Assembly: GCF_004010195.1 (NCBI RefSeq)
Contig: NC_057759.1
Span: 2,492,295-2,536,914, forward strand
Reading direction: 5' to 3'
DNA length: 44,620 nucleotides
DNA from: Chiloscyllium plagiosum
Taxonomy: Eukaryota
Numbering within the stretch: the stretch's first letter is position 1; every line of letters begins with the position of its first letter. A program made the translations under genes and the position numbers. Below the pieces are notes generated by a model, which was not told where the DNA came from, did not search any database, and saw only the letters and a program-made list of their open reading frames with translations. Below are positions 1 through 44,620 of the stretch, in pieces.

Positions 1-575
1 GAGAGAGAGAGAGAGCGGGCATGTGTGTGTGAGAGAGAGACAGCATGTGTGTGTGAGAGAGAGCATGTGTGTATGCGTGGGGATTGAGAGATTGCATGTG
101 TGTGCGAGTGTGTGTGTGCGTGTGTGTGTGTGTGAGAGAGAGGGTGTGTGCTTGCGTAGGGAGAGAGCACATGTATGTGTGGGAGAGACTGCATGTGTGA
201 GACAGAGGACAAGAGAGAGTGTGTATGTGAGAGAGAGACCAAGTGCGTGTGTGTGTGAAAATTAGTGTGTGTGTGTGTGTGTCTGTGTGTGAGAGAGAGA
301 GATAGATAGAGAAGGTCTGTGTGTGCGTGAGAGAGAGAGGATGTGTGTGGGTGTGGGATTGAGCATGTGTGTATGTGAGAGGATTGAGAGATTGCACGTG
401 TATGGGAGAGAGTGTGTGTGCTTGTGAAGATAGAGAGAGCACATGTGTATGTTAGAGAGACTACGTGTGTGTGAGAGAGGGAGAGAGATTGTGTAATTGT
501 CAGAGAGAGAGGTAAGAGAGAAAGTACCTGCTCGTACGTGAGTGTGTGTGTGTGAGAGAGAGATAGAGTACGTGA
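1..575. repeat. Degenerate (GT)n/(GA)n microsatellite tract
   Basis: Seen directly; mirrored by the (CA)/(CT) tract at 44190-44620. Confidence 0.95.
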
Positions 576-1859
576 GATGGTGGAATTGTCTGCCACGGAA
601 AGACGTTGAGACCAAAACACTGAATGTTATTCAGGAAGGAGTTGTATAGAGTTTAATGAAAACCAGAATGTGCTGGATAAATTCGGGCAGCATCTGTAAA
701 AGAGAGAGAATAAACACATTTCATTCGAGTGACACTTCTTCGGAACTGAGAAACAAAGTTCCAATTATACAATGCTGAAGTGGTCCTTCGGCCCATCGTG
801 TTCTTTGGACTAAAGGATCAAAGGGTATGTGGGAGGAGAGGAAGATAGTTGGGGGCAGGGGATTGAGTTAGATGGTTCGCCAAGATCCTGGTGAATGGCA
901 AGGAGCGGGGAATCAGGCTTGAAGGGCATACTCCGGCTCCTATTTGTGGTGGGTCGATAATTTGTTGTGACCAGGCGAGGTAAATTTACACAGAAGCAAC
1001 ATTTCTGTTACCTGTCACCTCAGCGTTGTGGCCGTGATGGAGAGAATGTGACATTTTCTGCCCTATATCCCACAGACGTCGTAGCGTGCACACACCCCCA
1101 ACACTGTCGGGTTAACTCGTGGCCGGGGACCACGTTGATGATATTACCCATTGCCATTTCCTCACGGAGCTGCCTCAGAGCACACGGTGCCTTTCGAGTT
1201 GAGCTTAGCCCGGCTGTCAATCACATGTTTCACAGCAGGCTGGTTACGGTCGCGGGGTTGTTGTTGGTGGTGGGGAGCTCACCCAGATGGATTGAAGCAG
1301 AGATTGATCAGTCAAAATTGAACTTGTCACCAGCACAGAGGAAATGGGCTGAAGGTCCTCTGCCTGTGCTCTCCCGTCTCCATCACTCCAAATATTAAAT
1401 CCTTAGCAATCCCAAGAATGTGGTCACCAACTCAACTCTCTTCATGTTAAAGGAAGGTGACCATTTATTTTACATTAATTCATGGGACGGGTGGGGGCAC
1501 TGGCTGGGACATTGTTTATTGCACCCATCCCGAATTGTCCCACGGGGCTTTTAAGATAAATGGCACAGAATTATCGAAATCTGCAGTGCAGAAAAAAGGC
1601 CCATCAGCCCATTGAGTCCGTGATGGTCATAGCAGCTACCTCACTATTTCCTGATCCCAATTCCCCAGCTCTTGTCTCATAGCCTTGGCATCGGGAGTGC
1701 ACATGTACAACCTTTTTCAATGTGATGAGGGTTTCTGCCTCTCCCACCCTTACAAGCAGTGAGTTCCAGATTCTTCACTACCCTCTGAGTGAACAAGACA
1801 GCGAGATGAGGAAGTGAATGCAGTGAGATGAGGAAGTGCTCCAGTCGACTGAGGAATAG

Positions 1860-2670
1860 CAGATAGACATCAATTTCTAAAATTTTAAGGTGCTGCATTT
1901 TGCTAAGTCAAAACAGGGCACGACTTACACAGTCTGGAGAATGCTGCAGAACAAAGAGATCTATGGTACAGGTTCATTGCTCCTTGAAAATAGAATCAAA
2001 AGGTAAACAGGTTGGTGAAGGAGGCTTTCGATATGTGTGCGTTGATCGGCCAGAGCATTGAATATAGGATTTTAGATGTAGTTTTGAAGCTGTTCAAGAC
2101 ATTGGTCAGTCCACTTTTGGGGTACTGTGTGCAATTCCGGCTACCATCCTATGCAAACGATATTTTTTAAACTAGAAAGAGCTCAGAGAAGATTTATTAC
2201 GATGCTACCTGGACTGGAAGGCTTGAGTAATAAGGATTGGTTGGATAGGCTGGCACTTCTTTGCCTGCAGTGTAGCAGATTAAAGGGTGACCTTGTAGAG
2301 TTCTATAAAGTCATGACAGGCATAGATAAGTTGGATAGCTGGCAGCTTCTCCCCATTTTAGGGAATCTAAAATTAGAGTGCATATGTTTAATGTAAGAGG
2401 GAAAAGATACCAAAGAGTTAAGAAGTGCAATTTTTTCACACAGAGTGTGAATGTCTGGAACAAGATGCCCATAGGAGTGATCGGAGCGAGTACAGTTTTG
2501 TTATTTCAGAAACACTTAAGCAGGTGCATGGATTGGATAGGTATGAAAGGGTATGGAAGGTTATGGTCCAAAATTAGCACATGGGACTATTTTAACTTGT
2601 GAAAACTGGGTGGAACGGGCAAGTTGGCCCGGCGGGTCTGTTTCCATGCTGTTGATATTTATGACTCTAT
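1860..2670 (+). mobile_element. CR1 LINE 3' fragment (decayed)
   Basis: ORF2 C-terminal remnant LERAQRRFITMLPGLEGLS...RLKGDLVEFYK; ends in an atgactctatg tail. Confidence 0.9.
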
Positions 2671-2699
2671 GTCTGAACTTTCTCCCACACTCTGTTTTG

Positions 2700-2706
2700 C
2701 GCACAA

Positions 2707-2750
<44 letters not shown>

Positions 2751-2950
2751 TCTGTCTCTGTCTCTGACTCTGTCTCTAACACACACATCCTCACCCACAC
2801 TCTCACACACTCTTACACACACACTCTGTCTCACCCACACTCTCTCAAACACACAGACGCAGTCTCACGCAAACACTGTCTCACACACACTCTGTCTCAC
2901 ACAATCCCTTTCTCTCAAACACACTCATGCTCTCTCTGTCACACACATGT
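2700..2950. repeat. (CT)n/(CA)n microsatellite tract
   Basis: Seen directly; mirrored by the longer (GT)/(GA) tract at 42305-42795. Confidence 0.95.
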
Positions 2951-3589
2951 CCTATTCACATGAAGCCCTCCCCTGCATTTTATCTGAAACAAACCAGCTA
3001 AAGATACAGCCACCGGAAAGAAGAGGAAATCTGGGGATTCTGTGAAAAATTGACTCGCTGTGCAGCCAAAAAAATAAACTGCCCATGTACAGAAAACAGA
3101 GGGCAGAAGTAACATGCAAATGGATAAGTTGCAAAGAGAGAGTCGTGAGCAGATTAGCAAAACTTGCATAAGTGAATAGAAAGCAGAACACAAATGTTTG
3201 TTTTAAACGTAAATAGGAAAGGTGATTTGAATCCAGACTAAGACAGATAAGGGACAGAAAGAGGGGGCAATTAATGCAGATTCGTGGTGAATGCTGATTT
3301 TATAGAGGGATACGAACTAGATTACTTGTTCCTCAGGGAATGCATATCACCCACTGAGTAAGATTAACATAAGATCTGCCCATCTCCAATCATACCGTGA
3401 CACTCTGCAATTCTCTCTGATGTTGTGGTAAATGAGGAACCCTTCAAAAGCACCAGCTACAAATATAGGAGATTGTTTGAAGACCTCAAGCAGTTGAGCA
3501 AACTAATTATTAGTATCTAGGTGTTGTTTGGATTCCAGAGGTAGAAACAACTTTTTTTAAAAAAAATGAAAAACACTCCCATAGAGAAA

Positions 3590-4290
3590 TTCCTTATCAG
3601 AGGAATCTGGATGTCATCGTCAGTGAGTCACAAAAATCGCATCAATGTTTAGCAGGTCGTAGGGAAGCCTTCATTTCAAAGGAAATGGTGGATAAAAGTT
3701 CAGAAGTTTTACAAAAAAATATATGCAAGGCACTAGTCGTACCACAGCTGGGAGATTGTGAATATAATGTGGATTCTTATCTAAAAGGTAGGCTGGGCAT
3801 TAGGGACAGTCCAGAGAAGGTTCACTCAGCTGATCCCGGTTATGGAAGGACTGTCTGACGAGGGAGAGGTTGGATAGTTCGGGCTTGTTTTTATTGGAGT
3901 TTCGAAGAAAGAGAGGCGACCTTATTGAGGATTTTTAGATGGATTTGACAGAGGAGATGTGGATAGAGGTTGTTTTCTCTTATGTGGGAGACTCTAGAAC
4001 CAGAGGGGCATCGTCTCAGAATAAAGAGTAGCCGCTCTTTAAATACGGAGATAGGAGGAATTGCTTCTCTATGAGGGGAGTGAATCTGTGGAATTATTTT
4101 CTTCAGAGGGCTGCCGAGGCTAGGCCTTTCAGTATATTCAAGGCTAACAGAGAGATTTTAATCAGGAAAAGGAATGGAGGATTAGCAAAGTGGAGTTGAG
4201 AATGATCGTATCATCTACAATCTGTTTAAATAACAGAACAGACGCTATGGGCTGATTGGCCTACAGCTAGTCCTTTAGTCATATGGACCC
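3590..4290 (+). mobile_element. CR1 LINE 3' fragment (mirrored at ~40950-41640)
   Basis: gtccagagaaggttcactcagctgatccc and gtgaatctgtggaatt motifs of the CR1 ORF2 end. Confidence 0.85.
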
Positions 4291-5254
4291 TATTCCCATA
4301 AATAGTAGTCACATAATCCTGTGTTTCCTTTCTGACAGAGCGATGCAGAGTTTGTTTGAAATGTGTCACCCCCGTCTTTCCTTTTCACTTGTACAGCAGT
4401 GGACATACGTGCACCAGGGGTGGAGCAATTAGCACCTGATGCAAATAATACATTTGTCAGGTTCCAAAAGCAACATAGTGCTGGAATCAGGAAATCTGAA
4501 ACCAACACAGATAGCACTGGAGAAACTCAGCAAGTCTGGCGGCATCTCTGGAGAGAGGCGAAATGAAAAGAGTTAATATTTCAGTGTATAAGCACAGAAA
4601 GTGCTGCAGAAACTCGGCAGGTCTGGCAAAATCTGTTGACAGACAGAGAAAAACAGAGGTAATGATACAGTTTATACACACAGAAAATGTTAGAGAAAAT
4701 CAGCAGGTCTGGCAATATCTGTGGAGAGAAAGAGGAAGAGAGTTAGCGTTTTTAGTATGTAGATTTTAATCTGTCCTTTTGCTTTGCTGGGCAAGTGTTT
4801 CTATCAGATAAGGAGCTCACTGTGTCAACTGATGCAGCTTAGTTCCTCTTTTTTATGTTTCAGTTGCAGGCAGTCCATCATAGTTGTTTCTGGGTGGTTA
4901 GTAACATATCCTGTTCTCGCAAACCCAAGGTTGCCCCACAGACGCCACTAGAGTATCCCTGTGACCCTAAAGTGCAGCATACCGATCTGCAAATCCCAAA
5001 CCTGATCCCCCCCCTTGGGTTGTCTCCCTGGACCCTGGAGTGAGGGGGGCGCGTTGTTGGGGTCCGTGCCTCAAGGGTAATGTACCCTTTGGAAAGGCTG
5101 TGCATTGGTCGGTCATATGTCTCTGGCATATTGATGGAAGAGAAAGGGAAGGGAAAACTAGAAGCAATCCATTCCCTTTGAAGAATCTATTGTAGAAATT
5201 GATCCTGAGGCAAAGTCCTCTAATGACTGAAATGGAAATGCCTGAGATGCTACG

Positions 5255-5760
5255 GGGAGAATGCTATTAAACTGGAAAGTGTGCAGAAAGATTTGAAAAG
5301 GATACTACCAGGACTGAAAGGTTTGAGTTGTAGAGAGAGACTGGATAGCCTGGTACTTCTTTCCCTGGAGCATCTGAGGCTGATAGGTGACCTTCAAATC
5401 ATGTGTAAGATCATGAGGGGCATAGATTGGGTGAATAGCTAAGGTCGTTTCTCCTGATAAAGGAGTCCAACACTGTAGGGCAATGGTTTAAGGTAAGCGG
5501 GAAAACATTTACAATGGAGCGAAGGGGCAACTTCTTCACACAGAGGGCGGTGCATGTATGGAGTAAGCCTCCAGAGGAAGTGGTAAAAGTAGGTACAATT
5601 TTAACATTTAAAACATATTTGTACAGGTACATGAAATGGTAAGGATTAGCAGGATATGGGCCAATTGCAGGTAATTGGGGCTAGTTCAGTTTGGGAAACC
5701 TGGTCACCATGGATGAGTTGGTCGGAAGGGCCTATTTCCATGCTGTATGATTCGATGTCT
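5255..5760 (+). mobile_element. CR1 LINE 3' fragment (mirrored at ~39130-39620)
   Basis: KLESVQKDLKRILPGL-like start; 3' end ggccgaagggcctatttccatgctgtatgattc-like. Confidence 0.85.
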
Positions 5761-6039
5761 GCTGATCTCCCTTTACTTCTCGCAGTTGAAGTGAGAAAAT
5801 TGGGGGAAATGGAGAGCTTGGGAGAAACCAAGTTGTAACACACTCGGGGAGATAGATCATCTCAGGTTGCAACTATCTTGTTGGAAATAGAATGAGTGGC
5901 ATCTTTCCCACCTCACTAACACCACACACTCATTGATTTTGCTTTTAAGGAAGGCCAAAGGAGAAATTAATTGCCTCCTTGAAGTGCTTACCCTCCCAGA
6001 GAGGGAAATGTCGATTTAATGTTTGGATTCCATGCAATC

Positions 6040-6073
6040 ATGCATACGATGGCATTTTGCTTACTCGTTTTCT
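6040..6073 (+). pseudogene. Orphan paralogous signal-peptide exon 1 (MHTMAFCLLVF), with no downstream exons visible
   Basis: ATG CAT ACG ATG GCA TTT TGC TTA CTC GTT TTC T|gtaaga. Positional homolog of 38814-38853 inside the inverted duplication. Confidence 0.55.
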
Positions 6074-6234
6074 GTAAGAGATCGTTACGGACTTATATAT
6101 AAATGAAACATTGTGTCTGTTTGTCTATCAGATCAATCACAACCAAATTAGATTTCAGAGCCATGCTGTTCAGAAGAGCTAAAATAATTCAAATTGATTT
6201 GCGTGTTCGAACCTGAAATTAGAATTTTATGGAA

Positions 6235-7410
6235 GTGAGGAGAATGGGTCGAGAGAGATAGAAAGAGGGACTTGGAAGAATTGAGGGAGAGAGAGATGTG
6301 GTTTGGTTTGAAGGAAGGGAAAGAGAGAGATGGCGGCAGGATTGAGGAAGGGAGATGGGGAAGTTTTAACGGAGAGGAAGAGAGAGAGAGATGGGGGCAG
6401 GATTTAGAGAGAGATGGGGCATTGATTAAGAGAGAGATGAGGCAGGATTGAGGGAGAGAGATGGGTCAGGATTGAGGGAAAGAGAGAGAGCTGGGTGTAG
6501 GATTGAGGGAGAGAGATGACGGCAGAATTGAAGGTGACAGAGATGGACAGGGTTGAGGGAGAGAGATGGGGACAGCATTGACGAAGCGGGAGAGNNNNNN
6601 NNNNNNNNNNNNNNNNNNNNNNNNNNNNNNNNNNNNNNNNNNNNNNNNNNNNNNNNNNNNNNNNNNNNNNNNNNNNNNNNNNNNNNNNNNNNNNNNNNNN
6701 NNNNNNNNNNNNNNNNNNNNNNNNNNNNNNNNNNNNNNNNNNNNNNNNNNNNNNNNNNNNNNNNNNNNNNNNNNNNNNNNNNNNNNNNNNNNNNNNNNNN
6801 NNNNNNNNNNNNNNNNNNNNNNNNNNNNNNNNNNNNNNNNNNNNNNNNNNNNNNNNNNNNNNNNGAGAGAAATGAGGATAAGATTGAGGGAGTAAAATGG
6901 GGCAGGATTTAGGGAGAGGGAGAGATATGGTGGCAGGATTGAGGGAGAGTTGGAGAGAGATGTAGCCAGGATTTAGGTAAGAAGAAGAGAAAGATTGGGG
7001 CATGATTATCAGAGAGAGAGAGAGATGGGGCAGAATTGAGGGAGTGAGAGATAGATGGGGCATGATTGAGGGAGAGAGGTGGAGGTAGAATTGACAGAGA
7101 GAGATGAGGCAGAATTCATGGAGTGAAAGGTAGATTGGGGAAGAATGGGGAGAAAGAGAGAGATGGGAGCAGAATTGAGGGAGAGGGAGAGAGATGTGAC
7201 AGGTTTGAGAGGTAGAGTGAGGTAAATCGAGATGAGAGAAGGATTGATAGAAGGAGATATGGGGTCAGGATTGAAATAGACTGTGAGAGACAGCGGTAGA
7301 GAAACATGGTCAGAGTATTGAGAGAGAGAAAACACTTGAGGAAGAGAGATCGAGCCAAGGAGAGAGAGATATGGTAGGCTTTGAAAAGAGAGACAGAGGT
7401 GGATGGGGTT
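6235..7410 (+). repeat. Purine-rich minisatellite (~24-28 bp unit GGGCAGGATTGAGGGAGAGAGATG) spanning the assembly gap
   Basis: Many degenerate copies on both sides of the N run; reverse complement at 38270-38665. Confidence 0.9.
6595..6864. other. Assembly gap (270 N)
   Basis: Run of N. Confidence 1.
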
Positions 7411-7711
7411 GTAAAGAAGGCATATGCAATTCTCTCCTTCATTGGCAGAATGAAGGACATAATTACTCTGGAGAGAGTGCAGAGGATGTTTACTAGCATG
7501 TTGCAAAACTAGACAATTGTAGCTATCAGGAGGGGTTCCCATTGTATTCCTTGGAACAGAGGTGCCATGGTGAAGCAATACCAAATAATGAATACTAAAT
7601 TGTGTGTTGCTAATGAAGGTGCAGAACTCTGAAAGCTAGTACTTTCAAATACATCTGTTGAACTAAAACCCATTGTTCTGTGATTTTTCACTAAACAGTG
7701 AGAGGGAGAGA

Positions 7712-7803
7712 GTCAAGATTAGAGTGGAAAAGCACTGTCGGTCAGGCAGCATCCGAGGAGCAGGAAAATTGACGTTTCGGGAAGAAGCCCTTCATCAGGA
7801 ACG
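7712..7803 (-). mobile_element. Single-arm Penelope-derived repeat with intact hammerhead core
   Basis: Minus strand reads CTGATGA AGGG cttctt CCC GAAACGTC (7798-7771). Confidence 0.7.
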
Positions 7804-9050
7804 AGGGCTGATTTAAGTTTGCTCTGAGCAGAAACAACCGCTAACAATTCTCATCCTGATCATCCAGAATTTCATTTACATTAATGGATCATGGTAGCAG
7901 AGAGCTTGCTATCCCCATCTTTTTAACCACATCACTCTCCATTTCTTCATGTTGCTGGAGTAGTCTTTGTTTTACCTTCTTCAGTTCAGCAAGAAACTGT
8001 TTTTTATATAAAATTTACTTGTATACTCTTTCAGAATTGTTTTTAACTTTCTATAAAGAGCCCTATATTTTCCTGATTCTCCCTAGAATGCATTACAAAA
8101 AAAAGGAAAGAAATTTGGCTGCAATTCTCACATTGTGTCAATGGAATCCAATGGCCATCCTTCAATGCTGTGAAGAAAGGAAAGAAAAAAAGCCAAAATT
8201 GGTTGTTTGTAAAACTGTTCATTGTGCTTTCAAGCAGAGTTAACTCTGTTGATTATTCTATAAATTAAACTTGACTTATTAAATATTCAGCACTGCATGA
8301 CGGAAAATAAAATTCAGTTTGCATTCCTCATGCCTACCATACAGCAACACAGGAGCATTGCAGATAATGCATCAGGGTAATGCCCTGTCTAAATCAGAAA
8401 ATAGAAGTGAATTAGCCAATTGTACTTTATGGTCAAGGAACATTATGATCAGTCAGATACAATGCAGTTGAACTGCTCATTGCACTTTCACTCAGTTGTA
8501 AATGGATTCGGTTTACACTGATTGTTGCTTCAGCAGCATTTAGAAAAGTACATCAATAAGCACTGAAACAAAAAAGAACTGATGGCATTCTGAACACCAA
8601 CACTTTTATATCATTACTCTGTTATATTCTGCACGATACAAATATAGAGTTCCATTGTGGTTCCTACCTAACTTGACTCCGAAGAACAGCATAGTCTCCT
8701 TTCAGTGGCAGTGCGTTACATTTTTACTTGTATGTGATTCTTACTGACAGCAACAATTAAAGCACTCCAGCCGTTTCCCATTCATTACAGGAGGCATGTA
8801 CTGCGATACAGACTGGCAGCACAAGAGAAAACTCACTGTCATACAGCCGTGAATGCTGCAAGGAAAATAATGAAATTTAGCCTCATTTATTTCCAATATG
8901 AATTGATGCTCAAACCATTGATCACGGCTGAGGTTATAAAATTATTGCAGTGCCCAGTAGTGAACCATAAAGTCCACTACACACACACACACACACACAC
9001 AAAATAAACTGAGACTGAAATGCAATACAATTAAATGCCATTGAAAAGAG

Positions 9051-9056
9051 TTTATT
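9051..9056 (-). promoter_or_regulatory. Candidate polyadenylation signal for the FCRL-like gene
   Basis: AATAAA on the minus strand ~1.6 kb past the stop, followed by T-rich and (GT)n sequence. Confidence 0.35.
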
Positions 9057-9579
9057 TACAGAGTTTATGCTGCACGTAGACACAAAACCGCAACTGAGTA
9101 GCGGAGAATAGAGCGATATTCATCAGAACCGGCACTATACATATTAAGAGTCAGGTGACTGCAGAACTGATGTCAAATTGTCCTTTCAACAGTGACAATG
9201 AGCAGATCAAGTTCACATTTCCAAAATGTTCTGCAGAATTGATGCATAATACAATGTCGCAGTACAGACATAATGGGATGAATGGTCTTCTCCTGTGCTG
9301 TACCATATCAGTTTTTCTGATGTCGGTTTGAAAGGAGATGACATGCTGTTGTGTTGTGTCTCGATATTTAAAGGTCATGCAGAAATGGACCTCCATGCAG
9401 AATAAAACTGTCTCTCACGCACAAAAACACAACAATGTCTGTGTCCAAAATGAAAGCAGATGTCTCAGTTTGAACTGACTCTCAAACCAAACAGGAAATG
9501 TGTGACCCTGATTCGAAATGTTTCTCAGAATAAAGCAGTCCACGTTCTGCCGTCGACCTATCTATTCTCTCCCCTGCCC

Positions 9580-10280
9580 ACCCCCACAGACTGACAGTCA
9601 ACCCATAAATCGCAAAATGCAGAAGATATTAAGACCTCTTCTCAGCACTCTAATAATAACTCTCACAGAATGAATCACACAGTCGCAGCGAATATCAGAG
9701 AACTAAACCACTTACACACACACGAGTAGAAACTGATATGTAAAGACTGATAGCTACACTCACTCTATCATGTTGCAGAAGCAAACAAATGATGGGATAC
9801 AGTTACTGCGGTGCAAATGTGTGACTATCATTCTCCATCGGTCCGTTTCTGTTCACTTAAGTCACATATTCGCATTACAGTAACTGTCGGCGATAGATTA
9901 ATAAAAATTTTCTCATTCACAAAGCTAAAACTGGCAGGAACAGAATGATAACTACGTTCCCAGTTTCACAGAGCATAAACGGACAAGCAGAGACTGATAA
10001 CAACACTCTCACATTCACAAGGCAAAATCTCACAGATACATATTGGTACGTGCACGGTTCGCGTTCACCAAACAGGAACTGACAGGTAGAAATCGATAAG
10101 TAAATTCACAAGGCAGTAAATGAGAGGCATAGATTATTAACTGCATTCACATATCATACAGGATAACCTGAGAGATACGGATTAATATTGATACTCTCAA
10201 GTCACAGCAGGAACAGACTCGTAAATGCACTCATACCCACATAGAATGAACTGACAGGAACAAAATGTTAACTACATTGG
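9580..10280 (+). repeat. Degenerate ~48-bp minisatellite (approx. CATTCACAAGGCAGAACTGACAGGAACAGACTGATAACTACACTCTCA)
   Basis: Unit starts recur at ~9915, 9962, 10012, 10061 and 10104; copies are more decayed outward. Confidence 0.7.
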
Positions 10281-10664
10281 TTATACAAATGATTAGGGGT
10301 TGGGTGTTGAGGATCTAATCGCTAAATTTGCAGATGATACTAACCCAGGCAGAAGAGTGAATTGTGAGAATAATGCTGCGAGACTTCACAGGGATATTAA
10401 CAAATTGGCCAAATGGGCAGAAACCTGGCAGGTGAATTGCAATGCGGAGAAGTGTAAGGTTATGAGTTTTGCTACCAGAAACATACGGTAATATTGCAGG
10501 TTCAATGAAACGTCTTTGAGGGGACTAATGGAGTAGATGAACATCAGAGTTCACGTGTATCAATCTCTGAAGGTGGCCAGGCAAGCTGAAATCGTTGTGA
10601 AGATGGTTCAAAGAATCTAAACACAAGGATTTGTGAAGCTTCGAAGGCTTTCTTCTCTGCTGTC

Positions 10665-10796
10665 TCACAATTTCCGTGGAACGTTGGCATAAACATTTCT
10701 TTCTTGGTCTTGATCAACTTCCTCATCCCCTCCTGTATCTGTGTGTCTCAGGGTGGCGTATATGATGCAGGATTGTTGCTGCTCCGCTTGGTCAGC
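10665..10796 (-). CDS. FCRL-like receptor exon 14, last coding exon (ADQAEQQQSCIIYATLRHTDTGGDEEVDQDQERNVYANVPRKL*)
   Basis: gaccttttctcag|gct, phase 0; IIYATL canonical ITIM plus C-terminal NVYANV; TGA stop at 10667-10665. Confidence 0.88.
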   Translation of the reverse strand, partial: ADQAEQQQSCIIYATLRHTDTGGDEEVDQDQERNVYANVPRKL

Positions 10797-13278: not shown

Positions 13279-13310
13279 GTGTTTCGTTCCTGGTGCACCA
13301 TCAGAGTGTG
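13279..13310 (-). CDS. FCRL-like receptor exon 13, cytoplasmic (AHSDGAPGTKH)
   Basis: ttttttaatttgcag|ca...cac|gtaagt; 32 nt, phase 1 to 0. Confidence 0.8.
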
Positions 13311-17419: not shown

Positions 17420-17476
17420 CATTGTGTGTGTGTGTGTTCTTTACTGAAGAGTACACGGCTGCAGCGCAGCTCGAAA
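17420..17476 (-). CDS. FCRL-like receptor exon 11, cytoplasmic (VSSCAAAVYSSVKNTHTHN)
   Basis: cttttcttttgactctttag|tt...aatg|gtaact; 57 nt, phase 1/1; YSSV motif. Confidence 0.78.
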
Positions 17477-19591: not shown

Positions 19592-19683
19592 CATTTAATT
19601 GACTTGACTCAATTTCCGCGTAATCGAAATTTCTTGCAGGTCTGTCCTCACTCTTGCTCTCAGCACGATTTCCCATCATCTCC
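19592..19683 (-). CDS. FCRL-like receptor exon 10, cytoplasmic (REMMGNRAESKSEDRPARNFDYAEIESSQLN)
   Basis: tttctttctgag|g (GAG acceptor), donor aatg|gtgagt; 92 nt, phase 2 to 1, matching both neighbours; YAEI tyrosine motif. Confidence 0.78.
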
Positions 19684-22779: not shown

Positions 22780-22881
22780 CTTTTTTCCTGTTCCAGAGTT
22801 TAACGGGAAGCAATGTGAGGAGAGAAAGGATCAGAAACAGTGGGACAATGATTGCTGCCATCTCAGCGCTGTGTTGCTGTG
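22780..22881 (-). CDS. FCRL-like receptor exon 8, transmembrane segment
   Basis: ctctctgaatccag|ca...AAA G|gtgggt; 102 nt; AQQHSAEMAAIIVPLFLILSLLTLLPVKLWNRKK, a hydrophobic run followed by a basic stop-transfer signal. Confidence 0.88.
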
Positions 22882-24105: not shown

Positions 24106-24408
24106 CTGGCAGTCTGAGATCGATGGGATTACTGGTCACATTAAATATCATTCCACTGGGACCCCTGTTGATCGCGCTGCATCGGTATTGGCCTTGGTGC
24201 TGGGACTGGAAGGATTCAATGGCGAGCTCTCTCCAGTCTGAGCTAAAGTTGTAATTCACGCTGACATTGTTTAAGGCTTTCTGTTGGAAGTACCATTGAA
24301 AGTAAGGTCTTGTACCTCGGCTCAATACACACTCTAGAACGGGACTACTCCCAATCAGAATCTCCTTTTTATTGGTTCTGAGTTTGAGGAAAACCCCAGC
24401 AACATGAA
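24106..24408 (-). CDS. FCRL-like receptor exon 7, Ig domain D5 (membrane-proximal)
   Basis: ttttgttccag|tt...CCA G|gtaatc; 303 nt; VLECVLSRGTRPYFQWY..HQGQYRCSAIN. Confidence 0.93.
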
Positions 24409-25719: not shown

Positions 25720-26004
25720 CAATCACTGAAACGGCGAGTAATTTGCTGTAGCGGAGAGACTCTCCCTCCTGGTTAGAAACAGCACAGTGATAATTGCCCT
25801 CTTGACTTTTGCTGATGTTGGCGATTGTGTGTATGGTTCTGCTGTGGTTGGAATACTCCCAGTAAATCTCCTGACTATCCTTGTAGAAAATATATTGAAT
25901 TGGGGTCGAACCGCGGGTTACAGAGCAGTTTAACCAGGTGCTGTCTCCTTCCATTACTTCGTTTCCAGGCTTTGCACTCAGATCTGGGACAGACACAGGG
26001 ATGC
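25720..26004 (-). CDS. FCRL-like receptor exon 6, Ig domain D4 (resembles FCRL D4/D5-type)
   Basis: ttctatcacag|gc...ATT G|gtgagt; 285 nt; RIPVSVPDL..EGDSTWLNCSVTRGSTPIQYIFYKD..EGNYHCAVSN. Confidence 0.94.
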
Positions 26005-26926: not shown

Positions 26927-27205
26927 GTTTGATTGAAATGAGAACTATGTTGCTCTTTTTCCTCAAATTACTATCGCGAGTCGTGACCTCACATTGGTAG
27001 GACCCTGAATGGTGCACTGTTGCTTCCTCTTTTGCATAACTGCTCTTCTCTGAAGGGAAGTTAAGAGAATCCCTGTTTTTGTAAAATGTGTATAAAAGGG
27101 GGTGATTTTCGTGAAAGGGTTCAGTCAAACAGACGAGGTTAAAGCCTTCACCAATGAATACTTCCACGTCGGGGTCAGCTTGCAATGTTGGCTTAGAGCA
27201 AAGAT
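26927..27205 (-). CDS. FCRL-like receptor exon 5, Ig domain D3 (resembles FcgRI/FCRL D3-type)
   Basis: ttctgttgtag|at...AAA C|gtgagc; 279 nt; DLCSKPTLQADP..GEGFNLVC..LLYTFYKN..HSGSYQCEV..RKKSNIVLISIK. Confidence 0.94.
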
Positions 27206-27539: not shown

Positions 27540-27800
27540 CTTTTATAATGATGCTTACATCGAGTGAGATCCATTTCCTGAAACCAAGTTTCTGTTCACA
27601 TCGATAAGTTGCTCCATCTGAAAATCTCGCCATTGCTATCGTGTACTCTGATTCATGCTCTCCTTCAATTAAGAAATTGTTTCGATACCAAAGGAAGGAG
27701 TAATCTCTGTCAGATCTCCAGGAATAACTGGAGCATTTCAGAACAGAAGTTTCACCAAGCAGCAGGGTCGTTGAATGGACTTGCACAGTCAATGTCATAT
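27540..27800 (-). CDS. FCRL-like receptor exon 4, Ig domain D2
   Basis: ttctttaagcttcag|at...AAA G|gtaggt; 261 nt, phase 1/1; LGETSVLKC...WYRN...DGATYRC. Confidence 0.93.
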
Positions 27801-28051
27801 CTGAAGCTTAAAGAAGAAAATATAACCTGTAAGATCTGAAAGACCTTAGTAGCCCATATTACAATATAAGGGTATGGAAGTCTTACTGCAACAATACAAA
27901 GGTGCTGGAGGGAACCACATCTGGAGCACTGCAGCGTCTTCAATCCACCAATTTAAGGAAAGATTGAATTTAATGGGAGGTAGTTCAGATAATGTTCACA
28001 GAGCTGATCCTTGGAATGGAGGGGCCATCTTATGAGCAAAGGCTACACAAG

Positions 28052-33549: not shown

Positions 33550-33801
33550 CAATGGTCACCATTTTCAAAGGTTCAACTCGTGAAGAGGAGCTCCGATCAC
33601 TGTTCCTTCGACACTGGTAAGAGCCTCCAGTTTTACTGTCAGCTTTTCTTCGGAGGTGATAAGTATAATCCTCGTAAATGTTGTTCTTATACCAGAAAGC
33701 TGTTATAAATCTATTGTTGTACCGACACTTTAGAGTGAACCACTCCCCTTCTTTAATGACACCATCCCTGGGATGAGTTATGACGACCTCTGTGGATTGG
33801 C
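33550..33801 (-). CDS. FCRL-like receptor exon 3, Ig domain D1 (only its last codons appear in the ORF track)
   Basis: ttgttctgcag|gc...ATT G|gtacgg; 252 nt, phase 1/1, no stops. Translates QSTEVVITHPRDGVIKEGEWFTLKCRYNNRFITAFWYKNNIYEDYTYHLRRKADSKTGGSYQCRRNSDRSSSSRVEPLKMVTI, with the Ig motifs C...WYKN...GSYQC. Confidence 0.92.
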
Positions 33802-37142: not shown

Positions 37143-37570
37143 CCTGAGTCTGATCTGCTATTCAACAGCTGATCTGCAGCCTAACTCCACAAACCTACCG
37201 TTGGACCCTAGCCCGTTAATACCTGAGGAAACACAATCTCTCAGATTGAAAACTAACACCTGGTCCCAGCCTCCACTGTGGCTTGTGAGTGAGAGTTCAA
37301 ACATCTCCTGACCTTTGTGTGCAAATCGTGAAATGTAACATTATCAACATACCGTATGCCACCAGATACGAAATGTTTCTTACTGTTAAAAGAAAAGAGA
37401 GAGAATTTAGCGTCACGTCTACAAATGTTCGTATTTTCAATTGTAAACTCTGTGAGATGATGCACACGCCCATGCGATCAAGAGTCCTTTGCTTAAAGAG
37501 GAATCAGCTGTTGGCCACAGGATTTGAGCAGGATTTCTGTTTGTTAAAGGGGTAAACCGTTTCTTTTTAC

Positions 37571-37606
37571 CCTGAGTTTGTACGTTTGCGTGAGAAGCAC
37601 TGTAGG
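37571..37606 (-). CDS. FCRL-like receptor exon 2 (36-nt signal-peptide mini-exon S2: (S)YSASHANVQTQ(G))
   Basis: Acceptor tcattttctcacag|cc, donor cagg|gtaaaa. Phase 1/1, open, and joins exon 1 to Ig D1 in frame. Confidence 0.7.
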
Positions 37607-38813
37607 CTGTGAGAAAATGATGAGTTATATTTCAGGGACACGAAATATTGAATGGAAATGTCTATTAAATCTGCTCAGATCGATAACTCAGGGCATGCCA
37701 CAGTAGACTCATAGAGTCATTCAGCACGGATACAAGCCCTTCGACCCAACTCGACCATTGTCAACAGGTTTTCCACAATAAATTAAACCAGCCCCACTTG
37801 CCTTCAATTTAGCCCATATTCCTCTAAACCTTTCCAATCCATGTCCCTGTCCAAATATATTTTAAATGTTTTAATTGTACATATTTCTACCACTTCCTCT
37901 GGCATTTTGTTCCAAATACACTTCCTGTTTGAAAAAGATCCCCCTCAGGTCCCTTTTAAATCGTTCCCCTCTCACCCTAAAGCTATGCCCTCTAGTTTTG
38001 GATAAGGACAAGATAGAAGTCTGGGTAACAGTACGTAATATGGAATGCCCACTTTAATACAATAGTGTCTCACAGTACATGAAAAGCCCTTTGAACCAAA
38101 CAATCTGTACCCAAAAATACTAAAGAATGTTCCCATTCAACGGGTGAGGGTGAACTGAAACAGAGAGTCACAGTCTAAAGGAGACTGAGATGGGGAGAAA
38201 TGTCCTCACCCAGAGAGAGGGACCCCTGTGGGATTCCCTACCACAGAAAACAGTCAGGGGCAGAACACAGAAGTGCCCCCATCTCTCTATCTCCCTTGTC
38301 ATCATCCGTTTCTCTCCTTCAATACTGCCCCTCATTTCTCTCTCTCCCTCATTTATATCCCTATCTCTCTCACTCTCTCTCCCTCAATTCTACCATGATC
38401 TCTCTCTCTCCTTGAATTCGATGGAGTCAATGCTCCCTCACTCTCCCCTTTAATCCTGCCCCCACCTTGTCTCTTCCTCAAATCTACCCCATCTCTCTGT
38501 CGCTGTCTCGTTCACTTCTACATCATCCCTCACTCTCTCTCCCTCAAATTAACCCCATCTTTCTTTTTCTCCCTCAATCCTGCCCCATTTCTCTTTCTTT
38601 CCCTTTCCTTCAATCCTGCCCTTCCCATTCTTTCTGTCTATCTCATTCAACCCACCCTCCTCTCTGACAGGAATTATAACTACAAGCTCAAATACACAAA
38701 ATAATTTGAATAATTTTAGCTCCTCCAAACAGCATGGCTCTGACATCTCCCTAATCCTAGTGGCAAATTCACATGATGTTTCATTTATATATAAAGCTGT
38801 AACAACCACTTAC

Positions 38814-38853
38814 AAAACATGAGCAGGCAAAATTCCTTCACATACGTCATCAT
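38814..38853 (-). CDS. FCRL-like receptor exon 1 (signal peptide S1: MMTYVKEFCLLMF)
   Basis: ATG ATG ACG TAT GTG AAG GAA TTT TGC CTG CTC ATG TTT T|gtaagt: perfect phase-1 donor with a hydrophobic FCLLMF stretch. A homologous exon with the same phase lies at 6040-6073. Confidence 0.7.
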
Positions 38854-40169
38854 GTGGAATCCAAACGCAGAGGCCTTCCCTCTTTCTCTGGGAGGGTAAA
38901 TACTTCAGGGGGCAATTAATTTCTCCACCAGCCTTCCTAAGAAAGGAACATAAATAGGTTTCTGGCTTCATTGAGCAGGGAATGAGACCGCTCAGTCTAT
39001 CCACCAGTGGTGGATACTTGTAGTCTGTGACTATCCATCTCCCTGAGTGTGTTACAAACTGTTACTCCACACCGTCCCTTTTATTTCCACAATTTTCTCT
39101 CTTTACCTGTGGCAAGGAAAAGGAGCTCAGCAAACAGAGAATTATGCGGCATGGGAACAGGGCCTTCTGCCCATATCATCCATGCCAACCAGGTTATTCA
39201 AACTTGTCCCATTTGCTTGTGATTGGCCCCTATCCTGCTAAATCTTTCCAATCAAATCCAATCCAGCACCAATGTCTTTTAAATGTTGTAATTGTACCCA
39301 TCTCCATAGCTTCCCCTGGCATTTTATTCCATATGTGCAATCAGTTATGAGAAAGATTTGCCCCTCAGATCCCGTAAACTTTTTCACCTCTCAACTTAAA
39401 CCTATGCTCTCTAGTTTTGAACTCACCTGCCCTGAGGTAAAAACTTTGGCTATTCACCCTATCCAGGCACCTCATGACCTTCGAAACTTTTATGACGTTA
39501 TTCTTCAGGCTCCCATGCTTCAGGGTTAAGACATCCCAGCCTATCCAACGTCTCCTGATAATCCAATCCTCCAGTCATTGTTAATCGTTTCTGTACCCCT
39601 TCTAGTTTAACAACATCCTTCCCGTAGCATCTCCGGCATTGCTATTTCATTCATTAGAGGAATTCTCACCAGAGTTGATCTCTCAATCGATTCTTCAATT
39701 AGAGTGAATTGCCTTCAGTTTTCCTTTCCCTTTTCTCTCTCATTAAAACAGCCAGACAAATATGTCCAGCCGGTGCACAGTTTATCCAAAATGTAGATGA
39801 ACTACGAGGGATTGAACAACACCGCCCACTACTCCCCCACCAGGCCTTTCCCACCACAGGAACCAGGAAGACAACCCTAAGGGGGAGATCTGGTTCTGGC
39901 TTCCGCAGATCGGTCTGCAGCTCTGAATCTTCAGCTGTAGGCTGAAAGGGAAACTCTAGCGGTGTCTGTGGGATAACGTTGGGTTTGAGAGAACAAGAAA
40001 ATATATTAACCACAAGTAGACAAGTATAATGGACTGTCTGCAACTGAAACACACAAAAAAAGGAACTAAGCTTCACCAGTTAACACAGCGTGCTTATTAT
40101 CTGACAGAAACACTTGCCAGCAACGCAAAAGGATTGATGTGGAATCAACATACTCAAAAATGTAATTAT

Positions 40170-40765
40170 CTTTCTCTCTCTCTTCACAGAGACTGCCAGA
40201 ACTGTTGAATTTCTGCGGCATTTTCTGTGTCTATAAACTGTAACATTAACTCTCTCCCTCTCTCTCCACACAGATGCTGCCAGATCTGCTGACTTCCTCC
40301 AGCATTTTGTGTTTATAACCTGTAATATTAACTCTGTTTCCCTCTCCCTCTCTCGCTCTTTCTTTCTCTCTCTCTCTTTCTCTCGCTTTACAAATGCTGC
40401 CAGATCTGCTGATATCCTGCAGCATTTTGCGTTTATAATCTGTAATATTAACTCTATTTCCCGCGCTCTCCCTCTCTCTCGCTCTTTCTCCCCCACTCTC
40501 TTTCTGTCTCTCTCTCTCTCTCGCTCTCTCTCTCTCACTCTACAGATGCTGCCAGATCTGTTGACATCCTCCAGCATTTTGCGTTTATAATCTTTAAAAT
40601 TAACTCTGTTTCTCTGTCTCTGTCTCTCTGTCTCTTGCTCGCTCGCTTTCTCTCGCTGTCTCTCTCTCCCTCTCTCTCTCTACAAATGCTGCCAGATCTG
40701 ATGAGTTTCTCTGGTACTCTCTGTGTTATTTTCAGATCTCCAGCGTCTTGCACTATGTAGCTTTT
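40170..40765 (+). repeat. Tandem units of AGATGCTGCCAGATCTGCTGAGTTTCTCCAGCATTTT separated by CT tracts (probably Penelope-terminus derived)
   Basis: 5 units here; related units at 4480-4745 (inverted), 23880-24030, 27235-27330 and 35250-35480. Confidence 0.65.
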
Positions 40766-43700
40766 GAAACCGGAAAAAAAATGTATTAGTTGTATCAGAC
40801 GGCAGTGACACCACTCCTGGTGAAAGTGTGCCTGCTGCTGTTCAAGAGAAGAGGAAAGACGGAGGCTGACACACTTCAAAATAACTTTGCAACGCTCTGT
40901 CAGAAACATGAGATTATGTGGCTGCAGTTTATGTGGAAGAGATCCATATGACCATAGGATTAGGAGTAGACCATTCAGCCCATCGAGTCTGTTTTGCCAT
41001 TCAAAGAGACTGGGGCTGATCTGATCATCCTCAACTCCATTTTGTTTACCTTTCCTCTACAACCTTGTGTTTCCTTTCCGATTTAAAAATCTCTCTAACT
41101 CAGTCTTGACTATCCTGAAAAACCTAGCGTTGACAGCCCTCTATTGTAAAAAGTTCTACAGATTCACTCCCATCGGAGAGAAGAAATTCCTCCTCATGTC
41201 CGTCTTCAATGATTCTGACATGACATCCCTCTGGGCCCATGCTCTCCCACACAAGGTGAACCAACATCTGTCCACATCTCCCCTGGCAAAGCCCTCGAAG
41301 AATCTTCAATAAGGTCATCTCTCGTTCTTCTGAACTCCAATAAGGACAGGCACAACCTACCCAGCCTCTCCCTCGTCAGGCAGTCCCTCCATACCAGGGA
41401 TCAGCTGAGTAACCTTCTCTGTACTGCGTCTAATGTCCAGTCTATTTTTTAAATAAGAATCCCCAAAACTATTCACAATCTACCAGCTGTAGTCTGACTA
41501 GTTCCTTGTATAGTTTTTTTTTAAGCAAAACGTCCGAAAACACCATTTCTTTTTAAATAAATGCTGTTTGCCTTCCCTACGAACTGACTAACTTTGATGC
41601 TATTTTTTGTGACTCACCAACAATGAATTCCCGATCCCTCTAATAAGGAAATTCTCCGTGGGAATGTTTTTCAACCTTCTCTGAAGTGGCTTCAGCCTCT
41701 GGAATCCAAGCAACACTTCGATCGCAAGGACTAATTTTCTCAATAGCTTGAGGAGTTCAGAGAATTTCTGTATCTTGCGAAGTGTAGTTGGTGTTTTAGA
41801 AGTGGTTCCTCATGTACCAGAACATCGGACAGAGTTGCAACACGTCATGGCGTGATTGGAGATCCCCAGTGGGTAGATCTTATGTTGATCCTATTCAGAG
41901 ATTGACATGCACTCCCTGAAGAACAAGAAAATCTAATTGCCTCCCTCTGTAAAATTAGCTGTCACTACAAATCTGCATTATTTGTCCGCTCTTTCTGTCC
42001 CTAATCTGTCTTAGCCTCAATTTAATTCTGTTTTTATATTTATATTTAAAACAAACATTTGTTCTTCCCCTTTCTTTTGACTTTTTAAAAAAAATTGCTG
42101 ATCTGTTCACTAACTTTATTTGCAACTTATCAATTTGGCTGTTACTTTAACCCTCTGTTTTCTGTCCTGGGCAGTTTAACTATTGACTGCACAGCGAGTC
42201 AATTTTTCACAGAATTCCGAGATTTCCCCTCATTCGCAGTGTTTATATCTTAAGCTGGATTGCCTCAGATATAGGGCAGGAATGGCTTTGTGAATTAATA
42301 GGACCTGTGTGAGAGAGAACATGTGTGAGAACAAAGTGGATGAGAGTAACTGTGTGTGTGTGCATATGTGTGAGAGAGAAAATGTAGATGAGAGGGAGAG
42401 TGTGTGTGTGTCTGTGTGTGTGAGAGAGAGAGTGACAGAGTGATTTTGTGGCAGAGTGTGTGTGAAACAGTGTGTGTGTGTGTGAGAGAGAGTGTGTGTA
42501 ACTGTGTGTGTGAGTGAGATAATGAGATACAGTATGTGTTTCAGAATGTTTGTGTGCATGTGGCTGTGAGAGAGTGCGTGAGACAGAGAGGGTATGTGTG
42601 TGAGAGTGTATGAGACAGAGTGTGTATGTCAGAAAAGGTGTGTGTGAGACAGAACGAGTGAGAGAGCGAATTCTTGTGAGACTTTGTGTGTGAGTGTGTG
42701 TGAGAGAGTGAGAGACAACTTGTGAGACAGCTTGCGTCTGTGTGAGAGTGTGTGCGAGATAGAGTCTGTGTGTGACACAGAGTGTGTGACAGAGTAGAGA
42801 CATAGAGTTGTAGATGTTTACAGCATGCAAACAGGCTGTCCGGCCCAACTTACCAATGCTGTCCAGTTTTCACAAGTTAAACTAGCCCCATGTGACTTTG
42901 CTTGACAAAACCGTATTCGCTTTCAGCGTTACCACGGAGGGCCTGTTCCAGACTCTCAGTACCGTTTGTGTGAAAAAATTGCGCCATTACATTCTTTTGT
43001 ATTTCTCCCCTCTCACCTTGAAGGAACCCTGATCACATTGAAGAAGGATTTAGATGTTAATTGTGATGCCAAGGCTATGGGCCACGTGCTGGGAAAAGAG
43101 GAGAAGATAATAGTGACGTAGCTGCTTTTGATCAGCTCAGACTCAATGGGCCAATGGGACTTTTTTCTGTGTTGCAGACTTCTACAACTCCCTGCATTGA
43201 CTCTTAACTGTCATCTGGGGCAATTAGGGATGCGAGTGATAAATGCTAACCCAGTCAGTGATGCCCATGTCCCATGAGTGAATGTAAAAAATGTTCATCT
43301 TCCTTTAATATGCAGCGAGTTGAGCTGATGTCCACATTCTCGGGATTGCGAAGGATTTGGCCTTTGAAGTAATGGAGACAGAAGAGCACAGAAAGAGGAA
43401 CTTCAGCCCATTGCGTCTGTGCTGGATAATTTTGAGTGACAGTTCAATCTTGACTGATTGATCGCTGCTTCAATCCATCTGGGTGAGCTCCAATTGTAAT
43501 CAATGGCTTGCTATGAAATATGTCACTGATAGCCGGGCAAATCTGAACTCTAAAGGCAACGTGTGATATGAGGCAGCTTGGTGTGGAAATGTTGGTGGGT
43601 CATTGCACCAATGTGCTCCCCACTCACGGGTTAACCCTGTGGGTGTTGGGTGTGTGTGCACTCTAACCAGTCTGTGTTGTATGGGGCTTTTCAACGGATA

Positions 43701-44620
43701 TCCCACATTGTCTCCATCACAGTCACAATGCTGTGGTGAAGCGTAACAGGAGTGTTGCTTCTGTGTAAACTTATCTTGCCTGGCCGCAACAAATCAGAGA
43801 CACATCACAAATAGGAGCAGGGATAAGCTCTTCCAGCCTGCTCCCCCATTCAACAGGATCGTGGCTGATCATTCAATTCCGTCCCCGGTGTCTCCCACTA
43901 TCTCCCCCTATACCCGTTATCCACATCCCCAGTAACACGATGGGCCGAATGGTCACTTCTATGTTGTGCCATTCTATGATTCGAATATGTTCTTTCAGTT
44001 CTGAAGAAGGGTCACTTGACTGATTCTTTTTCTCTTTCTATCTTTCCCCACAGATGATGCCTGAGTTTCTTCAGCATATTCTGTTTTGTCTGAACTCTAA
44101 GCAACCCCTTCCAGAGCAACATTTTTCAATGTTTTGGCCTCAATCTCTTTCCGTGGCAGAGAATTCATCGCTCTCATGCACTCCTTTTCTTTCACACACA
44201 CATGCAGTCGCTCTGTCTCACATACATACACTCTCTCTTACATATACATACATCCTTTCTCACCACACACATGCACTCTCTGTCACACACGCACTTTGTC
44301 ACTCTAACACACGCTCGCTCGCTCTGTCTCTCACACACACTCTCACTCTCTCTCGCACACTCATACCCACTCTCTCTCACACAAACATACACTCTCTCTC
44401 CCTCACACGCATTCACTCTCTCACAAACTGTCTCACACATACATCCCCTCTCACACATATGTATTCTCCCTCTCACACCCCAGCACTCTCTCACACACAT
44501 GCACACGCGCTCTCTCACACACATGCACTCTTTCTCTCACACACATTCAGTCTCCCCTCATGCACACACGCACTCACTCTTTCACACATACAAGCACTCT
44601 CCGTCACACACACACACACA

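Follow-up and report, generated by a model that had tools for sequence, protein, structure and literature searches.

A diverged inverted gene front, probably the remnant of a sister gene, opposite a putative Fc-receptor-like gene in Chiloscyllium plagiosum

Introduction

The closest described relatives of the locus considered here are the Fc receptor-like (FCRL) genes of mammals and the XFL family of Xenopus. According to PMC2413239, the two leader exons of mammalian FCRL1-6, FcgRI and FCRLB measure 30 and 21 bp, a rule with which only a fraction of the Xenopus members comply and which is thus not strict outside mammals. The same source describes the XFLs as multigene Ig receptors with lineage-specific duplicates and fragments, subject to birth-and-death turnover and including activating members with an NxxR membrane motif, and it notes that scaffolds with isolated exons may be misassembled regions, fragments or pseudogenes. 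FcRL genes have been stated to be absent from cartilaginous fish (PMC4016189, 2014; PMC13337447, 2026), and expression of fcrl3, fcrl5 and fcgr1a-like genes is mentioned for bamboo shark B cells (PMC11372145).

The DNA analysed, hereafter the window, is a stretch of 44,620 nt of Chiloscyllium plagiosum (NC_057759.1, 2,492,295-2,536,914, forward strand), within which all positions below are counted. It contains a minus-strand receptor gene bracketed by two mirrored arms. The open-licence PMC and bioRxiv texts searched held no publication on this locus, a search of main texts that shark FCRL lists in supplements could escape.

The receptor gene and its relatives

The enclosed gene encodes a five-Ig, two-ITIM receptor that matches XP_043539740.1 (Chiloscyllium plagiosum). 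Its coding exons are:

38814..38853, minus strand: coding part of leader exon 1, MMTYVKEFCLLMF and one further base before a GT donor; inside the right arm
37353..37382, minus strand: leader exon 2, of 30 nt and not part of the duplicated arm
33550..33801, minus strand: Ig domain 1 exon
27540..27806, minus strand: Ig domain 2 exon
26927..27205, minus strand: Ig domain 3 exon
25720..26004, minus strand: Ig domain 4 exon
24106..24408, minus strand: Ig domain 5 exon
22780..22881, minus strand: transmembrane exon, its core free of charged residues
21985..22015, minus strand: cytoplasmic exon 1
19592..19683, minus strand: cytoplasmic exon 2
17420..17476, minus strand: cytoplasmic exon 3, left out of isoform P0011
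16273..16338, minus strand: cytoplasmic exon 4, with the ITIM LLYSVV
13279..13310, minus strand: cytoplasmic exon 5
10665..10796, minus strand: last coding exon, with the ITIM IIYATL and the stop codon

A crude splice scan had first suggested leaders at 40151-40118 and 4757-4790 (with a GC donor), both of which were abandoned when exon 1 was located at 38853-38814 from the named protein. At 15531-15758 a 101-bp segment is repeated exactly in tandem, perhaps through a local flaw of the assembly.

In common with mammalian FCRL5, FCRL4 and FcgRI, the gene distributes its signal peptide over two exons (38853-38814 and 37382-37353) and carries its ITIMs in a multi-exon tail. The best PDB match of the whole protein is FCRL5 (E 2.3e-49), whose positions 13-437 align in order with residues 33-465. 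The protein has five Ig exons and forms one continuous alignment to the first FCRL5 domains, as in an FcR-type ectodomain. FCRL4 (2.2e-19) and FcgRI (7e-19) follow, and matches to FcgRI, FcgRII and FceRI cover domains 1-3. RefSeq names the window protein 'platelet endothelial cell adhesion molecule-like' and its orthologs 'Fc receptor-like'; no PECAM-1 chain appeared among the best 60 of 218 structure matches, a result that presupposes comparable PECAM-1 domains in the library. The leader exons differ in size from the mammalian ones, measuring 37-40 and 30 nt here against the 30 and 21 reported in PMC2413239. The gene and its relatives, which occur in at least seven shark genera, nonetheless look Fc-receptor-like in sequence, order of domains and division of the leader, contrary to the published statements that such genes are absent from cartilaginous fish, and the five-Ig, ITIM-bearing anatomy indicates that the product is presumably an inhibitory leukocyte receptor.

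The earlier note on this DNA had placed the gene in a multigene receptor cluster under birth-and-death evolution, and both proposals fit the records. Three C. plagiosum family genes, including the one in the window, are recorded under nearby accession numbers on a sequence of 8,079,144 bases, the two further relatives being tentatively assigned to the cluster by that shared sequence length. Turnover is consistent with these relatives and with the zebra shark, in which two near-identical genes and two short forms lie on one sequence. In C. punctatum, a complete sister gene with its own leader (XP_072420101/XP_072420102) is 71% identical to the window protein. A tree of shark sequences only unites it with Hemiscyllium ocellatum XP_060710971 in a clade (100/98) that is sister to the clade of the window gene. 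In both species the sister-type gene lies on a different sequence from the ortholog of the window gene (64.5 vs 50.0 Mb in C. punctatum, 33.3 vs 16.2 Mb in H. ocellatum). Word-index searches found no annotated C. plagiosum protein of the sister type.

The further suggestion of a paired-receptor family was not borne out. Its inhibitory side is present, with two ITIM-pattern motifs in the window protein and at least one in 50 of the 60 sequences closest to its ectodomain. Its activating side, a similar ectodomain joined to a charged NxxR-type segment or an ITAM, is not seen: neither an NxxR motif nor an ITAM occurs in any of these 60, a set that includes many isoforms of few genes and is limited to the search returns. 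A charged residue fell within the called membrane segment in two of them, both mis-calls inside an Ig junction, and the same scan did detect membrane segments of the NxxR type in four distant relatives whose species is unknown. The close shark sequences differ in this respect from the XFLs, whose activating members are described in PMC2413239.

The mirrored arms

The features of the arms and of the DNA at their inner ends are:

1..6594, plus strand: left arm, an inverted paralogous copy comprising leader exon 1, the DNA upstream of it and the first part of intron 1; continues past the window edge
38270..44620, minus strand: right arm, with exon 1, the first part of intron 1 and the upstream DNA of the gene itself; continues past the window edge
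1736..2392, plus strand: interspersed repeat of ~650 bp, confined to the left arm and with no counterpart in the right
5261..5757, plus strand: LINE 3' fragment, mirrored at 39622-39135, at the same site in both arms
6019..6073, plus strand: leader exon 1 of the orphan copy; its frame is open, MFGFHAIMHTMAFCLLVF and one further base, and a GT donor follows at 6074-6079
6250..7390 (limits approximate), plus strand: purine-rich intron-1 satellite, interrupted by the gap; arm homology ends here
6595..6864, no strand: assembly gap of 270 N, the sole gap in the window
38274..38620, minus strand: intron-1 purine-rich satellite of the intact gene, at the inner end of the right arm

Sequence at 1-6594 had been said to be mirrored at 44620-38270, and this mirroring is real: the order is the same and identity is ~76%, window-unique DNA included. 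Self-BLAST, a check of the dot-plot type, returned three ordered anti-diagonal blocks, 97-1736 vs 44620-43022 (70.0% over 1690 columns), 2767-4557 vs 42493-40674 (73.5% over 1861) and 4551-6574 vs 40354-38274 (68.9% over 2137), all with gaps counted. A single local alignment spans both arms; the identity over its columns is 77.0% (4144/5382, with blocks shorter than 8 nt left out), 76.4% (3176/4156) without the hand-marked simple repeats and 77.5% (2331/3009) in window-unique DNA, defined as lacking a match in the window interior and not by a repeat library. The alignment scores 4370, against at most 421 in 11 controls (the same-strand pairing and five interior stretches on both strands). A 96-nt block at 4864, previously aligned by hand, does have exactly 21 mismatches to its partner at 40043-39948. 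As had also been noted, both arms reach the window edges; each starts there in a microsatellite, so their outer ends lie outside view.

Reverse-complement colinearity over more than 1 kb, non-repeat DNA included, is what an old inverted paralogous duplication would leave, and the proposed age agrees with the Kimura two-parameter distance of 0.27-0.29 between the arms. Recent segmental duplications are defined by more than 90% identity, well above the 76-77% found here. The LINE fragment, which we take to be of the CR1 type, behaves as an insertion shared by both arms, since it occupies 5261-5757 and 39622-39135 and its flanks align through both ends. Between the arms it is identical in 320 of 454 columns (70.5%), not above its identity to unrelated copies (69-73%), and the case for a shared insertion therefore rests on position.

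Because leader exon 1 (38853-38814) lies within the right arm, that arm is the 5' region of the gene, and for the same reason a reading of the arms as 3' ends of flanking genes was rejected. The left arm ends differently. Its satellite runs on past the gap to about 7390, and beyond it homology ceases: 7391-10600 against 38270-33801 scores 34, under the best of 20 shuffles (36.5). The ~525 bp of satellite to the right of the gap are oriented as the left arm and most resemble the part before the gap, the first post-gap portion having a 10-mer cosine of 0.43 to the pre-gap part vs 0.23 to the right-arm mirror. Within the window, strong matches to this satellite are confined to these two sites. 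This apparent continuity across the gap favours both arms residing on one molecule, as assembled.

The orphan leader exon

Seven paralog proteins compared with the window (BLOSUM62, E up to 0.5) gave the leader exon as their sole plus-strand match; in a PAM30 run the other matches were short and weak (E at least 0.06). No copy of leader exon 2 was found on the plus strand of the window, where the best match scored 39.5 of 120, nor any plus-strand Ig exon downstream of the orphan leader. With neither exon on this strand, the orphan 5' end cannot make a receptor from exons in this window. Two convergent promoters with leader exons ~32 kb apart had been proposed; the leader exons do face each other, at ~32.7 kb. 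The two promoters find no support, as nothing points to an active left copy and neither exon 2 nor an Ig exon lies behind it.

The orphan exon, which contains a second ATG at 6040, has its best match in the C. punctatum sister gene (E about 1e-6 to 5e-5), whose two isoforms are the only ones of 194 proteins with a matching N-terminus. It shares 11 of 18 residues with this sister N-terminus and 9 of 18 with the leader of the window gene. Of the earlier description as an inverted duplication of the gene's own 5' region, the right half stands, that arm being the gene's 5' end with the coding leader exon; for the left arm, an origin from the 5' end of a sister gene may be, on thin evidence, the better description. 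Direct orthology to the C. punctatum gene is unsure since the remaining seven of the 18 residues differ. Between the leader of the intact gene and those of its orthologs, 1 of 13 residues differs in C. punctatum and 4 of 12 in H. ocellatum; seven differences in 18 have p 0.0002 at the first rate, 0.39 at the second and 0.05 at the pooled rate. Rapid divergence of leaders is thus possible, and at the H. ocellatum rate the orphan exon would not stand out. That the exon is the leader of either other C. plagiosum relative was ruled out, their N-termini being different and without a match.

Within the arms, the leader exon shows no excess conservation (42/61 identical, Fisher p 0.17 vs the rest). 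No promoter footprint emerged from a search of the arms, the best 100-column window (89) being equalled by 305 of 1000 shuffles. A block picked by eye, 4746-4880, is slightly above background at 83.6% (p 0.049, uncorrected). Identity is also somewhat higher in window-unique than in repeat DNA (77.5 vs 73.7%, p 0.011). No Rfam match reached gathering score in the window.

Origin of the left arm

The left arm is probably, at a probability of about 0.6, a genuine, old and non-working 5' remnant of a sister gene. Duplication of an Fc-receptor-like gene in carpet-shark ancestors would have given rise to sister genes, one of them tail-to-tail with the present gene, and the body of that sister after the first part of intron 1 would later have been lost or moved, or would never have been copied. 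The break lies at the purine-rich intron-1 satellite. The remainder, which faces the 3' end of the intact gene, would comprise the first leader exon, the satellite and 6 kb or more of upstream DNA, and presumably drifts at about the background rate. Such a fragment, an inverted 5' end of more than 6 kb and a leader without a body, differs both from the complete C. punctatum sister gene and from the stray Ig exons of the XFL scaffolds (PMC2413239), and it shares with the latter the ambiguity between fragment and misassembly.

The following points speak against a genuine remnant and for an assembly artefact, a less likely explanation that nonetheless deserves serious attention: the sole gap lies inside low-complexity satellite and coincides with the end of arm homology; sister-type genes, of which the one in C. 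punctatum matches the orphan exon best, lie on other sequences in two relatives; and the open frame and donor of the exon are kept. Gaps in low-complexity DNA are an expected site of scaffolding errors. The left contig could then be the real 5' end of a sister gene from elsewhere, possibly another chromosome, mis-joined through the shared satellite, in which case the paralogy would be real and the bracketing would not. However, given the left-oriented satellite to the right of the gap and its resemblance to the pre-gap part, a mis-join needs either a separate inverted satellite copy at the 3' flank of the intact gene or a chimeric contig at about 7390. Seven leader differences in 18 would, moreover, be a high count between orthologs of congeneric species (p 0.0002 if the 1/13 rate applies), and no annotated sister-type body was found in C. 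plagiosum.

The open leader frame and GT donor, together with the family members recorded on a sequence of the same length, could also be accommodated if the exon were the first of a live sister gene whose intron 1, after an inversion, spans the window, with the body on the plus strand beyond 44620 and the visible gene nested antisense within it. We consider this highly improbable, as the two other C. plagiosum relatives have different leaders that do not match the orphan exon, none of the 194 compared proteins has this very leader, and the exon bears no sign of constraint.

Little credence is likewise given to a paired-receptor cluster in which two promoters work convergently, with the left one either driving antisense transcription into the intact gene's 3' end or belonging to an activating partner. 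The converging leader exons 32.7 kb apart, the cluster context, the slight identity excess in unique DNA and two AATAAA poly(A) signals on the minus strand (9056 and 8891), 3' of the receptor gene's last coding exon and ~3 kb from the left donor, speak for such promoters; the absence of the activating type from all 60 close sequences, of a significant conservation peak and of any Rfam match in the window weighs against them. It would be just as surprising if the orphan 5' end had persisted without a body for some 100 million years as a live, tissue-matched promoter running antisense into the 3' end of the sister receptor so as to tune or switch its expression, that is, a regulatory element made from the front end of a dead paralog.

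The inverted arrangement around a gene could also suggest a mobile element with long terminal inverted repeats, or a gene-flipping segment inverted by recombination between its arms. Both are disfavoured, as the arms are only about 76% identical instead of near-identical, have indels of up to about 650 bp, carry a host leader exon within a patchwork of unique DNA, microsatellites and retroelement pieces, and are accompanied by no transposase or recombinase frame recognised by eye among 81 frames of at least 90 codons.

Perspective

The orphan front end is most likely a commonplace by-product of gene duplication, a mis-join in the assembly being the less likely alternative. Immune-receptor clusters are expected to accumulate partial, inverted gene copies, and the duplication alone matters little beyond documenting turnover in a shark receptor family. 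Of more interest is the putative shark Fc-receptor-like gene family itself. Such genes are not wholly new, since RefSeq already uses the name and their expression has been mentioned (PMC11372145). The family could inform the date of FCRL origin and could provide candidate receptors for shark antibodies.

Similarity of the inverted arms

The inverted similarity between the two ends of the window is genuine and lies far above chance level. Three ordered self-BLAST blocks pair 97-6574 with 44620-38274 at 69-73% identity, gaps counted, and a single continuous local alignment spans both arms. Its score is 4370, whereas none of 11 control pairings exceeded 421. Identity is 77.0% across gap-free columns (4144/5382, blocks shorter than 8 nt dropped), 76.4% outside hand-marked simple repeats (3176/4156) and 77.5% in window-unique DNA, defined as having no match in the window interior (2331/3009). 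The mirrored arms described in the earlier note are thus borne out, as is its figure of 21 mismatches in the 96-nt block at 4864, an exact count against 40043-39948. A LINE fragment, presumably CR1 from its sequence appearance, occupies the same site in both arms, and its flanks align past both ends.

Features of the arms and of the intervening gene
1736-2392, left-arm-only segment of about 650 bp without a right-arm counterpart
5261-5757 and 39622-39135, LINE fragment
6019-6073, +, orphan leader exon (open reading frame, GT donor, position matching right-arm exon 1)
about 6250-7390, gap included, purine-rich intron-1 satellite, left copy
6595-6864, assembly gap of 270 N, the only one in the window
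last ending at 10665, -, six tail exons (XP_043539740.1 mapping)
22881-22780, -, membrane exon (XP_043539740.1 mapping)
within 33801-24106, -, five Ig exons (open frames and XP_043539740.1 mapping)
37382-37353, -, leader exon 2 (XP_043539740.1 mapping)
38620-38274, purine-rich intron-1 satellite, right copy
38853-38814, -, leader exon 1 (XP_043539740.1 mapping)

The receptor gene

The five Ig exons between the arms were seen as open frames. With Ig exon 4 as query, the C. plagiosum protein XP_043539740.1 was retrieved at 100% identity, every coding exon of which maps back to the minus strand of the window. The core of its membrane segment lacks charged residues and its tail carries two ITIM-pattern motifs. 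The top solved-structure match is FCRL5 (E 2.3e-49; residues 33-465 in order versus 13-437), with FCRL4 and FcgRI also among the best. In its sequence, the order of its domains and its split leader, the gene is built like an FCRL; it departs from the FCRL 30/21 exon rule, and its formal membership is putative. The right arm contains exon 1 together with over 5 kb of DNA upstream of that exon and is therefore the 5' region of this gene, as originally proposed.

In the intron separating Ig exons 1 and 2, a degenerate 17-bp satellite takes up about 3 kb (30265-33211), and inside it two inverted short repeat copies form a near-perfect palindrome of 202 bp (30840-31041, 92%). The RefSeq predicted isoforms P0003, P0013, P0010 and P0011 omit the membrane exon, Ig exon 1 or a tail exon, skipping that would yield shortened or soluble forms.

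Origin of the left arm

The donor phase of the orphan exon is that of exon 1 of the window gene. When the N-terminal 45 residues of 194 proteins were compared with it, the orphan exon was matched only by the two isoforms of a C. punctatum sister gene (XP_072420101 and XP_072420102), sharing 11/18 residues with that gene and 9/18 with the right-arm frame, a thin indication that it may be closer to the former. DNA past the left satellite did not align with introns 1-2 of the window gene (score 34, below the 36.5 reached by the best among 20 shuffles), leader exon 2 had no good plus-strand match in the window (best 39.5 of 120) and the seven paralog proteins searched gave no plus-strand Ig match. 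The orphan exon is thus followed by none of the further exons sought, and arm homology ends within the intron-1 satellite.

The left copy shows no sign of selection: the orphan exon is identical to its right-arm mirror at 42/61 positions (p 0.17 versus the rest of the arms) and the best 100-column window was equalled by 305/1000 shuffles. Against this, window-unique DNA is slightly more conserved between arms than repeat DNA (p 0.011), and block 4746-4880, chosen by eye, reaches 83.6% (p 0.049, uncorrected). This block and its counterpart (40160-40030), among the better conserved parts of the arms, both contain a GC-type donor and a pyrimidine-rich acceptor about 75 bp apart; they are possibly an untranslated exon or promoter sequence, the conservation not being significant once selection by eye is allowed for.

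The left arm is best read, with a probability of about 60%, as an old remnant of the 5' end of a sister Fc receptor-like gene, inverted and inert. An assembly mis-join of genuine paralogous DNA is possible but less likely. In its favour, the only gap falls in the satellite exactly where arm homology stops, and in both C. punctatum and H. ocellatum the records place sister-type genes and the window-gene ortholog on separate sequences. Against it, about 525 bp of satellite lies to the right of the gap in left-arm orientation; its portion adjoining the gap resembles the satellite before the gap more than the mirror copy in the right arm at all word lengths tried (10-mer cosine 0.43 versus 0.23), and this satellite has no strong matches elsewhere in the window. 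Also against it, 7/18 residues differ between the orphan exon and the sister leader of C. punctatum, versus 1/13 between the leader of the intact gene and that of its ortholog in the same species, although leaders may diverge quickly (4/12 differ versus H. ocellatum, a rate at which 7/18 has p 0.39). An exact 101-bp direct copy elsewhere (15531-15631 and 15658-15758, intronic, 26 bp apart) may have been duplicated very recently or have been produced by gap filling, and in the latter case would be an assembly blemish that favours mis-joining. Protein searches found no sister-type C. plagiosum protein of any length, which fits a dead sister but would fit an unassembled one too. Overall, the odds favour a real orphan by about two to one.

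Age of the duplication

The arms are separated by a K2P distance of 0.27-0.29. PMC13100897 gives a dS of 0.0612-0.111 for whale shark versus zebra shark, which parted about 50 million years ago; on that scale the split falls, at face value, 126-229 million years ago, probably an overestimate because short chromosomes and the regions near chromosome ends are reported to change faster (PMC13100897). In any case, the duplication is far older than the 20.9-million-year split between two Chiloscyllium species reported in PMC7677710. Across three hemiscylliid sharks, the window-gene orthologs share about 90% identity, and the sister gene and zebra shark genes are 71-74% identical to these and to each other. 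In a larger protein tree the zebra shark genes branch off before the sister split, with modest support (91/89), while a smaller one does not settle this order; both agree with an old split, as the earlier note had supposed.

Probable receptor cluster and shark relatives

Two further relatives in C. plagiosum, with ectodomain identity of about 39%, have records on a sequence whose length equals that of the sequence bearing the window gene, and one zebra shark sequence carries two genes differing at 1/653 residues plus two short forms. This fits a small receptor cluster with turnover. Unlike the 5' region, age and cluster, the proposed pairing lacks support, as paired families require activating members and none occurs among the 60 closest sequences. 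A membrane scan covered 194 proteins (135 with a membrane call), and the 60 nearest to the ectodomain were assessed: 50 carry an ITIM pattern, none an ITAM and none the NxxR membrane motif that marks activating Xenopus FcR-like members (PMC2413239). Two charged membrane calls were spurious, falling in an Ig junction of forms without the membrane exon. The same scan flagged four NxxR segments among distant matches without a species name, and activating shark relatives are therefore possible.

Finding a 5' sister-gene fragment within a cluster of immune receptors adds one more case to a familiar phenomenon; the Xenopus FcR-like genes described in PMC2413239 likewise include stray fragments of uncertain assembly. 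Among the main texts of open-licence papers, no literature on this locus was found.

The ITIM-bearing FCRL-like family extends across at least seven shark genera, comprising the window gene (38853-10665, -) and the shark relatives P0004, P0012, P0024, P0027, P0031, P0032, P0175, P0183 and P0191, with relatives named in Chiloscyllium, Hemiscyllium, Stegostoma, Mustelus, Heptranchias, Heterodontus and Scyliorhinus. RefSeq names already hint at such receptors, and a 2024 single-cell paper reported that B cells of bamboo shark express fcrl3, fcrl5 and fcgr1a-like (PMC11372145). Given that FcRL genes are said to be lacking in cartilaginous fish in a 2014 survey (PMC4016189) and a 2026 review (PMC13337447), the FCRL-like family of sharks is worth attention.
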